Below are positions 3,764 to 13,305 of a DNA stretch of 64,000 nucleotides, piece after piece (position 1 is the first letter of the stretch; the number at the start of each line of letters is the position of its first letter). This stretch comes from a virus (taxonomy: Duplodnaviria > Caudoviricetes). Where the stretch lies: IMG/VR virus record IMGVR_UViG_2902767014_000002, positions 1,964 through 65,963 of that record; one strand, 5' to 3'. The notes under the pieces were generated by a model. It saw only the letters and a program-made list of their open reading frames with translations, was not told the origin of the DNA and did no database searches. A program made the position numbers and the translations under genes.

Positions 3764-4831
3764 TTAGGCTGTCAGGTCGATTGCTTCGCGCGATGCGCGG
3801 ATGAACTCGGCTGCCGCTTCCGCGTTGATCGCGTTACCGTAGGCGCGCAGTCGTCCCACTCGGGCGGGAGCCCCATCAACCAGCGGGAATGTGCCGGGTT
3901 CAACTGGCCGCCACTTTCCGTCCCGGCAGAGCAGCCAGTCAGCAGCTCGCCAGAAGCCGTTAGTCGGGCCGGCTGCGGCGGCAACTCCGGCAGATCGATC
4001 CCATGCCCCTTGATCGCCCGGCCGCAGAGCGCTTCCGTCTTGCGCGAGAAGTCGTTGTTCCCCGCCATGTTGTTTCCGTTCTGCGCTGGCGTTCCGGCCA
4101 TCGGCGTCGGCCAGCCGGCCAATGTCGCCGCCATGCCCAGCGTCATCCCGAAGCCGTTGTTGCCGTGACGAGCTGCGCACTCCGCTCGCCGCGCTTCCCA
4201 TGTCGAATCGTTGTCGTTCTGCGGCCCCGCGTTCGGCGTCGGCCACGATGCGAGCCACGCCACTCGACCGAGCAGCGCGTTCAGCGGCACGTTCGCGCAC
4301 TCGCTGCCGTCCTTGTGATCGCGTGTTGTTGGCGTGGGCCATGAAGTACGCGCGGTCGCGGATGTGCGGAGCACCGACGCCCGCAGACGGGAACGGGACA
4401 CACCCGAGTGCGTAACCCATCGCTTCCAGGTCAGCTTGAACAAGGTCGATCCAAGGGTCGATGTCCTTGCTCGCAACCTGTTCTCCAAAGATGACTGCAG
4501 GGCGGCGCTCGCCGACGAGCCATGCCCAAGCGGGCCAAAGGTGCCGCTCGTCAGCAAACCCAACTCCTTTGCCTGCCGCGCTGAAAGGTTGGCACGGACA
4601 GGAACCGGTCCAAACAGGTCGATCGTCAGGCCATCCGGCGAGTCGAAGCGCGTACGACCAGACACCGATTCCGGCGAAGAAATGGCACTGCGTGTAGCCT
4701 CGCAGGTCATCGGGTCGGACATCCTCAATGCTCCTTTCGTCTACGTCGCCTGCGGCGATATGCCCCTTGGCGATCAGGTTGCGCAGCCACTGCGCGGCGT
4801 ATGGGTCAATCTCGTTGTAGTAAGCGGCCAT
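3764..4831 (-). CDS. DNA cytosine-5 methyltransferase, large (alpha) polypeptide
   Basis: HFFAGIG (motif I), GSCPCQPFS (IV), GEQV (VI), HIRDR (VIII), YGNAI (X); no motif IX in this frame. Confidence 0.9.
3772..4722 (-). CDS. Nested alternative-frame methyltransferase small (beta) polypeptide with motif IX
   Basis: Open frame over about 950 nt; AAGGAG RBS 8 nt before ATG 4722; [13 protein letters not shown] resembles motif IX; three WPTP repeats. Confidence 0.75.
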
Positions 4832-5123: not shown

Positions 5124-5768
5124 TTATTCGTGTGTGATGCGCTTTAGCTTGATGACCCAGACCCACGGGTTCGCTTGCCAGTTGGTAGCGGGCGTGGCAA
5201 GGCTGTCCCACAGGCTTTGAAAGCCAGCGCGGAACTTCAGGTGTTCAAGATCCGCGCCGACGATCGACGGCGTTGCGCCTTCGGCGATCGCGTCGTCTTC
5301 GTTGATGTCCTGCAAGCGATCGACGCGCACGCCAGTGACTTCGAGCGTGATGCGCGACGCCCAGCGCGGCATGTGGATGGACGGACGCCATGGCTCGCTG
5401 TCGCGGCCCTGCGTCGCCTGATACTCGACGCGGCGGCAGTACCGCTCATCCGGCACGTAGCGAGCGACGCCGTATTCGAGGGGCGCGCCGGGCGCACTGA
5501 TTTCCACGACGCCGCGCCACGTCTCGCGCACCCACAGACGGTCGCCGGGTTGGCCGTAAGGACAGAACTGCAGCATGTCTCGGATGCACCATTGATCGGC
5601 CGGCAGGATGCCGCGTGCCGGGCGACGCCCCCAATACGCACCGCCGACCCAGCCGGTTTGCTCGACTGGCTGCGGCTTCACGACGCGCCGCGTCTGCGTC
5701 TTGCTGCCGTCGAGCAGAGCGCGCACCATCGGGCCGCTGAAGAGGATCGGACGTTCTTTTATAGTCAT
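5124..5768 (-). CDS. ASCH-like phage protein (ERPILFSGPMVRA...KTQTRR family)
   Basis: Conserved family motifs GDRLWVRETW, WRPSIHMPRWASRI, NPWVWV. Confidence 0.8.
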   Translation of the reverse strand: MTIKERPILFSGPMVRALLDGSKTQTRRVVKPQPVEQTGWVGGAYWGRRPARGILPADQWCIRDMLQFCPYGQPGDRLWVRETWRGVVEISAPGAPLEYGVARYVPDERYCRRVEYQATQGRDSEPWRPSIHMPRWASRITLEVTGVRVDRLQDINEDDAIAEGATPSIVGADLEHLKFRAGFQSLWDSLATPATNWQANPWVWVIKLKRITHE

Positions 5769-5908
5769 TTGCTGCCCCGATAGGTCTTGGTCAAAGCATG
5801 GTTGGCGGCGTGTCCGCGGCGACGCACGGCGTTCGCGAGTTGTGCGCGGTCGTGGTGGCTGCTCGGTGCTTGACCCAGCAGGCCGAAATAGCTGTTTGCG
5901 ACAATCAT
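5765..5908 (-). pseudogene. 47-codon remnant resembling the C-terminus of a DGR reverse transcriptase
   Basis: Hand translation MIVANSYFGLLGQAPSSHHDRAQLANAVRRRGHAANHALTKTYRGSK; ATGA overlaps at both ends; similarity is recalled, not searched. Confidence 0.6.
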
Positions 5909-6357
5909 TTCCACGTTCGCCCAGCGACGATTGCCCAGACGGTTCCTTGGGCCAGCCCGAATTCGCGCGCGAGTGCCAGTGACCCGTCCGTTCGGCTGTA
6001 AGGCTTGAAGCGACTCCGAATCTTCGCGACAATTTCAGGCGTTGCCTTGGTATTGGCCGGCTTATTTCCGACGGCGCGCCGAGCGCGACCCTTGCTGATC
6101 ATGTCGCGTATGTTGTCAAGGCGCGACCCTAGGCTCAGATGCGCTGGATTGATGCACTTCCGGTTGTCGCAGGAGTGCATTACGTCTTGCTTTTCCATGA
6201 TCGGCGCGTTGTGCAGCTCGAACGACACCCGATGCGCGAGCCGATTCTTGCCTTCGTGCCAGACTAGACCGTAGCCGGCCTTGCAGATGTGGCCAGTGAA
6301 TTCGAGGCATTCGCCGCTCCTCGCAGTGCGGCGCATCAGGTTGTCGATCGTTGCCAT
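5905..6357 (-). CDS. HNH homing endonuclease
   Basis: AHRVSF...HSCDNRKCINPAHL...DN HNH motif. Confidence 0.9.
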   Translation of the reverse strand: MATIDNLMRRTARSGECLEFTGHICKAGYGLVWHEGKNRLAHRVSFELHNAPIMEKQDVMHSCDNRKCINPAHLSLGSRLDNIRDMISKGRARRAVGNKPANTKATPEIVAKIRSRFKPYSRTDGSLALAREFGLAQGTVWAIVAGRTWK

Positions 6358-6359
6358 GC

Positions 6360-6833
6360 TTAAACCTCGGCGCGAGAAGGAATAAATCTGCGGACGGCGC
6401 GGGCGCGGAACTCGTAGTGCTGGGGGGTGTAGTACTGATGGCCGTCGCGGAAGTGCTGACACCAGGCCCAGCCGGACTCCGATTCATGCGCCTCGGCCGA
6501 CCAGTACGCGCGCTCTTCGAACTCGCTTTTCAGGTTCGCGAAGAGCAGTGATTGCTCGCGGCGTGTCGGGAGTTCGCCACCCTGCTCGGCGGCCCATTCC
6601 TTCGCAGCCGACCACGAGACGTCGTCGACGTCGCCCGGCAAAAGAATCAGGTGATGCGACAGTTCGCCGTTTTCGTCGAGCACGATCCCGGCGTAGCGCT
6701 CACCCGGTGCGAGCGGAATCGTCACGGCCGGGATGTGGAGTTCCGTTGCGCGCGTTGGCTGCTTCCTGAACTCATCGATCAGTTTGTTGATTCGGGACTG
6801 TTCGGCCTCGATGGCCTCAAGCGTGATGGTCAT
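6360..6833 (-). CDS. DUF1566 (C-type lectin-like fold) protein, DGR target 2
   Basis: W..A..WA...GGELPTRRE...YWS...AW...F..G...RARAVRR. Confidence 0.85.
   Translation of the reverse strand: MTITLEAIEAEQSRINKLIDEFRKQPTRATELHIPAVTIPLAPGERYAGIVLDENGELSHHLILLPGDVDDVSWSAAKEWAAEQGGELPTRREQSLLFANLKSEFEERAYWSAEAHESESGWAWCQHFRDGHQYYTPQHYEFRARAVRRFIPSRAEV
6385..6476 (-). repeat. DGR variable repeat VR-a (92 nt)
   Basis: 74/92 identical to 6874-6965; all mismatches at codon positions 1 and 2. Confidence 0.85.
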
Positions 6834-6863
6834 TGCGATGCTCCGTTGTGAATGGGCAAATGA

Positions 6864-7229
6864 TTAAATCGACAATCTGCGGACGGCGCGGGCGCGGAAC
6901 TCGCCGCCCTGGCGGTCGTAGCCCTGACTGCCGAAGTCGAAGCACTGAAACCAGGCCCAGCCGGAATAACCGGGGTCGCTGTCGGGCGTGTTCGACCAGT
7001 AGGCGTCCTTCTGGAACTGGTCGCGGTGCTGCTCGAACGCGATCACGAGCTCGGCGCGCGTCGGCAGGTCGCCGCCGATGCTTTTTGCCCAATCCATCTG
7101 GGCCTGCCACGACGCGTCGTCGTTGTCGCCGGGCAGGAGGATGGTGTGTGTGACATCGCCGTTCGCATCGACGAAGCCACCGAGGTAGATTTCGCCATCG
7201 GCCAGCGGGGGAATCTGAATTTGTTGCAT
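6864..7229 (-). CDS. DUF1566 protein, DGR target 1
   Basis: GGAG RBS before ATG 7229; GGDLPTRAE...YWS...AW...RARAVRR. Confidence 0.85.
   Translation of the reverse strand: MQQIQIPPLADGEIYLGGFVDANGDVTHTILLPGDNDDASWQAQMDWAKSIGGDLPTRAELVIAFEQHRDQFQKDAYWSNTPDSDPGYSGWAWFQCFDFGSQGYDRQGGEFRARAVRRLSI
6874..6965 (-). repeat. DGR variable repeat VR-b (92 nt)
   Basis: Paired with 6385-6476. Confidence 0.85.
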
Positions 7230-7391: not shown

Positions 7392-8045
7392 TCAGGCGGC
7401 TTGCTGGCGGAGCATTTGTTCGAAAGCGGTCACACGTCTTTCGAATGCGACAAGCATCTCGACCATTTCGTCAATGAAGTTGTCGTCACGATAGATGCGC
7501 TTGTAGAACAGATCCTTGCCGACCGGCTCAAGCGCTGGCACGTACTGGATGAAATCGATCCACTTCCGTCCTGTAATCCAAAGTCCGCCCTGTAACTGGC
7601 ATTCGTACTCTGAGATATCGTGCGTCGTGAGCATGTCCATGATTTTCACGCTATCGACCGGACACTTGATCTCGATCAGGCCGTCATCACCCACCAGGCC
7701 ATCAGACGAATACCCGAACTTGCGGTCGTCTGTCAGGATCACACCCGATTCACTGGCCAGGTTGCCGGTGCGGGCCTCATAGCCCATCCTCGCGAACCCT
7801 TCCATTTCATGTCCGCGGTCAAGCGTCCATGCTTTGACAGGTTCACCGTAGGGTTTGCCGCTTACGCGCTCAATCGCAATGTCCAGTGCGTATTTGTCGG
7901 ATGCGCCCGTCGGGTCGCCCGGATTCTTGTTGCCGGATTTCCGTTGCAGCACGGAAATGGCATCAGCAAAGCATGATGCGGTGATAGCGCCGCAGCGGGA
8001 TTCCAACCAGAGGGGCGTGCCCTGTTTGCAATTTACGACAATCAT
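7392..8045 (-). CDS. YqaJ/lambda-exonuclease-like recombinase
   Basis: WLESRCG.ITAS, RGHEME, SSDGLVG...IEIKCP, Q.QGGLW motifs. Confidence 0.9.
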   Translation of the reverse strand: MIVVNCKQGTPLWLESRCGAITASCFADAISVLQRKSGNKNPGDPTGASDKYALDIAIERVSGKPYGEPVKAWTLDRGHEMEGFARMGYEARTGNLASESGVILTDDRKFGYSSDGLVGDDGLIEIKCPVDSVKIMDMLTTHDISEYECQLQGGLWITGRKWIDFIQYVPALEPVGKDLFYKRIYRDDNFIDEMVEMLVAFERRVTAFEQMLRQQAA

Positions 8046-8947
8046 TCCTGTGCCCCCTGTTCCGCTGCCATCTGGCGTTGAAAATCGGCTTTGAGTTCGG
8101 CGTCATCGGAACCGTGTTGACGCTCTGCCGTTTGCGCTGTCTGAGCCTTGAGAACTGGTCCACGCGCCTCAACTGCCGCCTTGAACGAGTTCGACGCGGA
8201 CACGTCCTTGGCGGCGTTGATCTCACGGACACCCTCTTTCCATACCTTCGCGAGTTCGTCGGCAGTCTTGGCGGCGTTTGCTGCCGTTACCCACTTCAGG
8301 GCAAGCGCACTCAACACCGGCTCACCCGGCTCATCGTGAGCTCGCAACTCTTCCGGCACATCTTCGATGTCCTGCGTGAAGATGTCCGACGCGCCAGTCA
8401 CATTCAGAGTCATGGCGATCTTCGCGCGCTTGCATGCCATTTTCAGGATGGTGTTCGCCTGATCGGCCGACTCGGTGCGGATCTGCTGTTGCTTCTCGAC
8501 CTTGTTTTGCCACTTGGAGAATTTCAGGCGACGCAGGTTTTCCGGCGTCACTTCGAATTCCTCTGCGCAGATCGCGCGTCGCCACTTGTACTTTTCCTCG
8601 TGTGATGAACATTCGCCGAGCCCTTCGCCCAGCACGACACCGGTCACTTGGTGAACTCCGATGCAACGAACCCGGTAGCGGGCCATGCCGTCGACCGTCA
8701 GGTCTTCTATCTCGTACTTGTCGGCGATCCGGAAAGTGACGCATAGTACCTCCGCGCCCGGCTTGTACAGCGACGGCTTCTTAGTGCCTGGGATGACGCC
8801 GTAGTGCGTGTCGCTCTTCATGATCGAGCGCATTACCTCCTGCACCAAATTCACGCGCTGTCGGATCTCGACGGCGGAAAACTGATGCACCTCGCTCGAT
8901 ACGATGCCGGCCGTCTCTCGTCGCGGCATTTCGATTATTTCGTTCAC
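8042..8947 (-). CDS. Putative single-strand annealing/recombination protein
   Basis: Coupled to the YqaJ gene; HYGVIPG.KKPSLYKPGAE motif; function inferred from position. Confidence 0.55.
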   Translation of the reverse strand: MNEIIEMPRRETAGIVSSEVHQFSAVEIRQRVNLVQEVMRSIMKSDTHYGVIPGTKKPSLYKPGAEVLCVTFRIADKYEIEDLTVDGMARYRVRCIGVHQVTGVVLGEGLGECSSHEEKYKWRRAICAEEFEVTPENLRRLKFSKWQNKVEKQQQIRTESADQANTILKMACKRAKIAMTLNVTGASDIFTQDIEDVPEELRAHDEPGEPVLSALALKWVTAANAAKTADELAKVWKEGVREINAAKDVSASNSFKAAVEARGPVLKAQTAQTAERQHGSDDAELKADFQRQMAAEQGAQE

Positions 8948-12663: not shown

Positions 12664-13305
12664 TCAGGCAGCATCCTTTTCTTCGAATTGCACTTCGACC
12701 CAAAATCCGGTCATCAGATTGGCGGGTTTAGTCTTCGCGATAACTCGCCCATAGACAGACCATTTGGGTAGGCGCAAACGAAGTGCAGCGAAAACGCCAT
12801 AATTCTCGCCAGCCTCGATGCCCCGGCCAGCCTCGATGCCCTCGCCAGCCTCGATGCCCCCGCCAGCCTCGATGCCCCCGCCAGCCTCGATGCCCCCGCC
12901 AGCCTCGATGCCCCCGCCAGCCTCGATGCCCCCGCCAGCCTCGATGCCCCGGCCAGCCTCGATGCCCCCGCCAGCCTCGATGCCCCCGCCAGCCTCGATG
13001 CCCCCGCCAGCCTCGATGCCCCCGCCAGCCCGCAACGAAAATTCGATGGTGATCGAGCCAGAAACGCGGATCGATCCGGCAAACACGAAGTGCCTCTTCT
13101 CCAGCCTCTCCACGTCGAGAACGTCATCGGTTTTCCCGAATGCGTTCAGCAGCCAGTACGCGTCATCGAATCGATCGTCATCGCATAGTGCGTCGAGAAT
13201 TTCCTGATACTCTCCGCCTTCTGGAAAATTTCTCAAATACCATTCATAGCCCTCCGCACACGGATGCTTTTCTTTCAGAAATTCCTTCGTGATTTTCATA
13301 TTCAC
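12664..13305 (-). CDS. Hexapeptide (AGGGIE)x12 repeat protein, predicted beta-helix
   Basis: Translation; repeat tract in frame. Confidence 0.75.
   Translation of the reverse strand: MNMKITKEFLKEKHPCAEGYEWYLRNFPEGGEYQEILDALCDDDRFDDAYWLLNAFGKTDDVLDVERLEKRHFVFAGSIRVSGSITIEFSLRAGGGIEAGGGIEAGGGIEAGGGIEAGRGIEAGGGIEAGGGIEAGGGIEAGGGIEAGGGIEAGEGIEAGRGIEAGENYGVFAALRLRLPKWSVYGRVIAKTKPANLMTGFWVEVQFEEKDAA
12809..13030. repeat. 18-bp tandem repeat CCAGCCTCGATGCCCCCG, about 12.3 copies
   Basis: Read directly from the sequence. Confidence 0.97.

Follow-up and report, generated by a model that had tools for sequence, protein, structure and literature searches.

What becomes of a diversity-generating retroelement (DGR) when its target genes are kept and the machinery that diversified them is gone? 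The question is raised by a stretch of 64,000 nucleotides (hereafter the window), which corresponds to positions 1,964 to 65,963 of the viral record IMGVR_UViG_2902767014_000002 (Caudoviricetes) and represents a Paraburkholderia prophage within a host genome of 7.44 Mb (71 contigs, 99.94% completeness). An earlier, sequence-only reading of the window had proposed that an HNH gene sits where the gene avd, the template repeat (TR) and the reverse transcriptase (RT) gene of a DGR should be, and that a C-terminal stub of the RT was left behind. Comparison with intact relatives agrees with this placement. Homology to the DGR of a P. aspalathi prophage (locus L001) extends through the target genes to position 6385, right after the last variable region (VR), and resumes at 5903, 140 bp before the RT stop, to continue up to that stop. 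In between, ~1.6 kb of L001 (avd, TR and RT residues ~1-290) stands against ~470 bp holding the HNH gene in the window, which implies that ~290 of 338 RT codons were lost. We therefore consider it very likely that an HNH gene has taken the place of the engine of a DGR in the window, and that the RT tail stayed behind. The features concerned, and the two recombination genes that precede them, are the following (window coordinates):

6864..7187, minus strand: DGR target gene A, 107 amino acids, Lcl_C/DUF1566-like with a C-type-lectin fold (Pfam Lcl_C 2.3e-5, below the curated cut-off); VR at ~6875-6966
6360..6833, minus strand: DGR target gene B, 157 amino acids, Lcl_C-like (Pfam Lcl_C 1e-5, below the cut-off); VR at ~6386-6477
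5904..6372, minus strand: replacement cassette, in the place of avd, TR and RT residues ~1-290; delimited by the homology breaks, boundaries good to a few bases
5905..6357, minus strand: free-standing HNH_3 endonuclease gene, 150 amino acids, with a C-terminal helix-turn-helix-like tail (PF13392, phrog_6254)
5765..5908, minus strand: RT C-terminal stub, open reading frame (ORF) of 47 amino acids (homology to RT C-termini)
5124..5768, minus strand: downstream early gene, 214 amino acids, phrog_874 (5.9e-71); its start overlaps the stub stop (ATGA)
8045..7392, minus strand: YqaJ exonuclease (profile searches of the window proteins)
8947..8042, minus strand: RecT-like gene, 301 amino acids (RecT-like by sequence reading; no Pfam match)

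Every gene between 1 and 10 kb of the window lies on the minus strand, in what is a temperate-phage early region, and the order of transcription is RecT-like gene, YqaJ, targets A and B, HNH_3, stub, phrog_874 gene and, further downstream, a C5 methylase.

The intact relatives define what has been lost. They carry two to three Lcl_C-type target genes, followed by bAvd, the TR, the RT and the next gene. In L001, three Lcl_C-type genes each end in a ~95-nt repeat, of which an adenine-rich fourth copy, the TR, lies between avd (bAvd) and the RT gene; the three VRs differ from it at TR adenines. The isolated Burkholderia phage Magia has the same layout and is annotated accordingly. The RT family to which the stub belongs is thus supported as a DGR RT family, as judged from the bAvd, the adenine-rich TR and the adenine-specific TR/VR mismatches of these relatives. 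In the intact phages the start of the next gene overlaps the RT stop (L001 9347/9344, L132 1252/1249, Magia 4644/4641). On the metagenome contigs L133 and L132 an intact RT is followed, with that same overlap, by the orthologue of the phrog_874 gene of the window, and their RT 3' ends are 93.5% and 90.8% identical to the window at the nucleotide level, with homology that starts at 5903/5896, a few bases before the Asn codon of the NSYFGLL motif. The flanks of the window thus align to L001, L132 and L133, and what has been replaced is the avd-TR-RT body alone. On the left, target B ends in a stop and ~4 preceding codons (after ...AVRR) that resemble those of other HNH-bearing loci and not those of intact DGRs, which places the start of the cassette ~12 nt past the conserved ...CGCAGAT; the contig of L132, the closest intact allele, begins at the TR and does not include this side. 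The targets of this DGR family come in 2-4 paralogous copies and are located beside YqaJ in the early/recombination region instead of the tail module. In the window (6360-7187), L001 (6370-7619) and Magia (L134, 2065-2922) they are tandem genes for lectin-fold proteins of 107-160 amino acids.

The identity of the stub was established by homology, as a 47-codon ORF is in itself unremarkable in such GC-rich DNA. The ORF 5908..5765 (minus strand) is present with exactly the translation that had been quoted before, and an ATGA links it to each neighbour: its start codon shares bases with the TGA of the HNH gene (6357..5905), and its own TGA with the ATG of the gene at 5768..5124. The resemblance to the C-terminus of phage DGR RTs, which the sequence-only reading had pointed out, turned out to be real. 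As many as 76 longer proteins match the peptide (identity up to 93%), nearly all of them with PF00078, and with the very C-terminal end of the PF00078 RTs of Paraburkholderia/Burkholderia prophage DGRs it shares 79-93% identity; it aligns, for instance, to residues 402-448 of an RT of 448 amino acids (E 1e-24). The last 44 RT codons survive within the 47-codon frame. The RT-derived part begins at about codon 3-5 (...ANSYFGLL...), and the ATG comes from the region of the HNH stop (TGGAAATGA) and not from the RT. The block NSYFGLL...SH.DR..LAN...RG.....TKTYR was found in 93 intact RTs of Beta- and Gammaproteobacteria, and the window stub keeps all 15 positions that are at least 95% conserved in intact RTs. 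The RT of a relative matches the Bordetella bRT (PDB 8ub7, E 1e-33) up to residue ~286, and the stub is therefore what remains of the thumb subdomain, its tail. The peptide alone gave no Pfam or PHROG match, and the homology emerges only among longer proteins. When proteins of similar length were searched, ten other ORFs of 46-69 amino acids were recovered, named 'RNA-directed DNA polymerase' by the Joint Genome Institute (JGI).

Not all apparent extensions of the remnant proved genuine. The RT homology that tblastn suggested upstream, into the 3' end of the HNH gene, is low-identity noise for the window and for L033; a longer RT remnant seems real in L021 and G127. A 51-amino-acid 'stub' called by JGI as a separate gene in L117 was rejected, as the frame is open for 585 codons, and it was treated as an intact RT. 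At L117 3001-3156, JGI calls three short genes across this 585-codon RT-like frame, which probably reflects faulty gene calling within an intact RT.

The two VRs of the window are genuine DGR products. Compared with the TR of L132, VR-A differs at 15 of 25 adenine positions and at none of 67 other positions (Fisher p 5e-11), and VR-B at 11 of 25 and 1 of 67, respectively (Fisher p 8e-7), which amounts to 26 adenine mismatches and a single non-adenine one. A similar adenine-specific result was obtained with the TR of L024 as reference. The mark of a DGR remnant, VRs that differ from a cognate TR only at template adenines, is therefore present, and the VRs are now without an engine, as had been proposed. 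The parts required for a complete DGR were absent: the whole 7.44-Mb genome yielded no match to PF00078, hence no DGR-type RT elsewhere, and none to PF22296 (bAvd), and a window VR used as DNA query found only the two VR copies in the genome and no third that could be a TR. The earlier statement that RT, Avd and TR are missing from the window thus holds for the entire host genome. The suggestion that the VRs might still be diversified in trans finds no support in this host. Continued activity through an RT and TR located elsewhere, or through a split RT complemented by the stub, would fit the fact that the VR 3' ends are intact and identical to the TR ends of relatives (they correspond to the region resembling an initiation-of-mutagenic-homing site, IMH, noted for the Magia target), and some other hosts do carry several such prophages. 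Considering that RT, bAvd and a third VR/TR copy are lacking from a genome of this completeness, and that most other HNH-bearing genomes in the genus also lack an intact RT of this family, such activity is hardly credible. With no further RT, Avd or TR anywhere in the genome, the two VRs are fixed alleles.

The arrangement is not confined to the window. Among 213 species-representative genomes of Paraburkholderia, stub-like sequence was found in 25, at 30 places. Around 19 of these places are intact RTs with bAvd upstream and six have the order targets-HNH-stub (the window, G171, G104, G017 and, twice, G004); at the others we found one half stub with a NUMOD-type HNH, two stubs that follow other genes, an N-terminally truncated RT and a frameshifted RT. 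With the HNH protein as query (E<=1e-25), 8 places were recovered in the same genomes, seven of them directly after DGR target genes and the eighth past the 3' end of an intact RT gene, ~4 kb further downstream. The targets-HNH architecture also occurs in B. ubonensis (HNH 85% identical), in B. multivorans and on several metagenome contigs. A metagenome search with the phrog_874 protein retrieved only loci that were at most 58% identical, none with an RT, a stub or a cognate HNH. Other endonuclease genes occupy related positions: an HNH_3 that is 41-45% identical starts exactly at the position of the avd start codon of intact loci and leaves a longer RT remnant (L021/G171), a related HNH accompanies an RT remnant in L224/G127, and NUMOD-type HNHs are found in L002, where avd is kept and the TR and RT body are replaced, and in L030. 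In total, around one in four loci of this DGR family in the genus shows replacement by endonuclease genes.

Several of the recovered loci show additional peculiarities. At L224/L020 (G127), one of the seven places after targets, an ISL3-like transposase gene lies inside the NSYFG codons of the RT remnant downstream of the HNH, so that this insertion struck a DGR that had been disabled before. In Thauera butanivorans (L046, 2686-3132), four targets are followed by an ORF that joins Avd residues 1-69 to RT residues ~253-335; here the DGR engine suffered an internal deletion in which no endonuclease was involved, which demonstrates that decay of another kind exists. Two prophages of G017 (L019 1641-2198 and L033 1641-2402) share a 98% identical stub and the start of a downstream C5 methylase, and the N-terminus of the L019 methylase runs into an HNH-like segment (...EVHHRNGDK...). 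In Trinickia mobilis (L058, 1900-2983) the targets and bAvd are followed by ~1.1 kb that matches no query and then by a 73-codon open frame that includes the stub.

The HNH protein of the window belongs to the HNH_3 family, with a PF13392 score of 34.5 bits (1.5e-8) that exceeds the curated cut-off of 24.8 bits. It also matches phrog_6254 (2.6e-27) and, below the cut-off, zf-His_Me_endon (3.7e-4). For HNH_3 genes, homing is established in T-even and T7-like phages (intronless homing), and the window protein shares ~40% identity with free-standing HNH genes from phages, T7-like ones among them. Its orthologues in Burkholderia and Paraburkholderia prophages are 63-85% identical, with a ratio of non-synonymous to synonymous differences (pN/pS) of 0.20-0.37, and the synonymous differences (pS) of 0.5-0.87 among them are near saturation. 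In the host genome an HNH of this kind is present as a single copy. Indirect signs of homing are the fixed site after DGR targets at seven of the eight places, the patchy distribution and the discordant histories of HNH and stub. On the basis of family membership and this comparative pattern we infer that the HNH may be an active homing enzyme that caused the replacement. In the literature on DGRs in combination with homing endonucleases or HNH genes we found no description of endonuclease genes that replace DGR engines, and HNH is not mentioned by Wu et al. 2018 (PMC5758913).

The mechanism that we have in mind runs as follows. The HNH would be a site-specific homing endonuclease with this DGR cassette as homing site. 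When a phage that bears it meets an intact relative, cleavage and recombinational repair would copy the HNH gene in, with the end of the target gene and its VR as left homology arm and the conserved RT 3' block, from the NSYFGLL codons onward, as right arm; the NSYFGLL-coding block and the VR end might in addition form the recognition site. The recipient would retain its own VRs and its own RT tail, and this tail would also keep up the flow of ribosomes into the downstream gene, the start of which lies within the RT stop. Several observations are consistent with such a course. The window HNH is closest to those of L135 (85% amino acid identity) and L022 (78%), the window stub to the intact RTs of L133, L132 and L001 (93, 88 and 82% at the nucleotide level) and at most 77% identical to any other stub; the nearest neighbour of most other stubs is an intact RT as well. 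These discordant histories suggest repeated site-specific invasion. Furthermore, the VRs of HNH-bearing loci mostly show 0-3 non-adenine mismatches to the best extant TR, as VRs of intact DGRs do to their own TR. Given the pS of 0.5-0.87 among the HNHs, this low drift indicates that the loss of the RT is recent relative to the divergence of the HNH family. The pattern would thus be that of an old endonuclease lineage that has invaded active DGRs repeatedly and recently, with each recipient keeping its own VRs and RT tail. For homing as the mechanism, taken by itself, we regard the balance as even. A more specific version, a free-standing HNH lineage specialised in homing into Burkholderiaceae prophage DGRs that recognises VR-end DNA and/or the NSYFGLL block, deletes avd-TR-RT each time and leaves an RT tail that perhaps acts as a micro-protein too, is a tentative proposal on the doubtful side.

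There are points that weigh against this reading. The targets-HNH block of the window is collinear with L135 (7239..5905, 77.5% at the nucleotide level), with a break exactly at the HNH stop codon, so that one old insertion followed by modular recombination at that stop could yield the same mosaic. The comparison of VRs took the best of 95 extant TRs for each VR, a choice that favours low mismatch counts and flatters the apparent freshness of the VRs, and TR cores are strongly conserved across lineages. Moreover, the homing model derives from comparison. One might accordingly dispense with homing and assume a single ancient illegitimate replacement, followed by modular recombination among temperate phages in which the conserved stub served as a linker between modules. 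The collinearity with L135 fits this as well, as do L033 and L019, which in one genome combine the nearly identical stub and methylase start with different upstream genes, and the fact that across loci the stub is flanked by variable modules on both sides. It is nevertheless a fairly unlikely account. The same engine was replaced by no fewer than three distinct HNH lineages and with differing junctions, which no single event can explain; the VRs of HNH-bearing loci show almost no non-adenine drift, third codon positions included, while the HNH orthologues approach synonymous saturation; and the window stub resembles L133 from its first RT-derived codons onward, so that a crossover would have to lie ~8 nt or less from the HNH stop.

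Why the stub persists is a separate matter. It may be a recent relic or a homology arm, it may serve as a spacer for coupling, or it may act as a small protein. Our own reading is that it is mainly a young relic and homology arm, and that the coupling of the RT to the next gene was preserved incidentally. This is challenged by values that resemble those under purifying selection, a pooled pN/pS of 0.26 in 12 free-standing stubs (L117 left out; the corresponding 40 codons of 93 intact RTs give 0.30) and one of 0.19 for stubs against their nearest RT, and by the presence of stubs without an HNH nearby at L019, L122 and L120. Low values of this kind require, under the relic model, that truncations are recent or that stubs are refreshed by recombination. 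The window stub itself differs from L133 at only 8 positions (2 non-synonymous, 6 synonymous), which gives no power to detect relaxed selection. The stubs beside orthologous HNHs have a pN/pS of 0.17-0.33 and a pS as saturated as that of the HNH itself. In the frameshifted RT of L036, invariant residues have changed, as expected after selection lapses.

A functional small protein, a piece of the RT thumb under selection that for example binds the DGR RNA or Avd of incoming phages or that partners or restrains the HNH, would account for these ratios, both the pooled one and that beside orthologous HNHs. It would also agree with the in-frame start at the junction in 11 of the 12 stubs (which in most cases overlaps the stop of the preceding gene, whichever that is), with the retention of nearly all positions that are at least 95% conserved in RTs, and with the persistence beside unrelated neighbours (L019, L120, L122); moreover, the stub is the end of the thumb, around the base of which the 'Thumb Ring' RNA is wrapped in bRT. 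Yet the stub is dispensable: it is absent from the HNH-bearing L135 and L139, has no start codon in L029, is half deleted in L030 and carries a stop in L020. Recent truncation would equally give low pN/pS, and so would repeated re-sampling of stubs from functional RTs, which their interleaving with RTs suggests; no Pfam or PHROG family represents the stand-alone stub. A selected protein is therefore quite improbable. The sequence-only reading had favoured another explanation, that the stub is kept because it preserves coupling to the downstream genes. The coupling architecture is genuine and is already found in intact phages (L001, L132 and Magia); in the window the stop-start chain from HNH via stub to next gene is maintained, and most stubs overlap their neighbours at both ends. 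As the reason for retention it is unproven, given L135, L029, L020 and L030. If the next gene needed ribosomes that arrive via the RT 3' end, deletions of that end would be counter-selected, but coupling requires few codons and leaves 44 conserved ones unexplained, as well as the fact that in the window-type lineage the boundary repeatedly lies immediately 5' of NSYFGLL. L135 has an identical HNH end (TGGAAATGA), which is ATGA-coupled directly to a different gene without any stub, and L002 and L021 lack the overlap between the stub stop and the gene that follows. Coupling as the chief cause is in our opinion unlikely, if somewhat less so than a selected protein, and we hold to the view of a young relic and homology arm.

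Elsewhere in the window, the C5 methylase region (3764-4831, minus strand) contains two long overlapping ORFs on the same strand, one of 355 amino acids with a DNA_methylase match and one of 318 amino acids in another frame. An ORF of 213 amino acids at 12664-13305 (minus strand) contains ~16 tandem GGGIEA hexapeptides, and the opposite strand and the other frames are open across the repeat too.

DGRs are usually catalogued as present or absent, and their loss and the later fate of their targets have been little studied. Here the loss takes the form of recurrent, position-specific replacement by endonuclease genes and not of random decay. If the proposed course of events is correct, one selfish element repeatedly switches off a hypermutation system and freezes the VR alleles present at that time. 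If the HNH truly homes into DGRs, this would be a conflict between two mobile elements that can be read out from the VR alleles frozen at invasion, and it would provide a natural endonuclease with a defined target inside a retroelement. There are practical consequences as well. Detection of DGRs on basis of the RT misses 'orphan VR' loci such as this one, and the naming of short stub ORFs as 'RNA-directed DNA polymerase' by JGI could inflate RT counts.

The locus is not a new type of system: known kinds are combined anew, and the genomic event itself is well supported. DGRs with short DUF1566-type targets form a recognised class (category d; PMC5758913). Free-standing HNH genes, for their part, are common in phages. 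The closest systems are the prophage DGRs of Burkholderiaceae ('CLec2' category d; Magia, MT701587, and L001). Like the window, these lie in the early region beside recombination genes of the YqaJ/RecT type and have tandem small targets with VRs at the 3' end; they encode the same RT family (72-93% identical to the window stub) and show the same overlap of RT stop and next start. The window differs in that it lacks avd, TR and RT residues ~1-290, has an HNH instead and cannot diversify. The DGR of Bordetella phage BPP-1 (bRT-Avd, PDB 8ub7 series) is comparable in so far as the RT of the window relatives matches bRT and the stub corresponds to the part of the thumb that remains at its C-terminal end; unlike in BPP-1, the targets are small early-region proteins and not the tail-fibre protein Mtd, and a functional RT is missing. 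With the free-standing HNH genes of phages, the window HNH has in common that it is a small HNH_3 protein with a C-terminal DNA-binding-like tail encoded between genes, which is patchily distributed among close relatives, at the same site and with mosaic breakpoints at its borders. Unlike those genes it does not lie between intact genes, but coincides with the loss of a ~1.6 kb retroelement engine. Lambdoid phages, finally, have conserved 'linker' or 'boundary' sequences between their modules. The stub is likewise a short conserved island with interchangeable modules on both sides, but in contrast to these linkers it is a recognisable gene fragment with an open and coupled reading frame.

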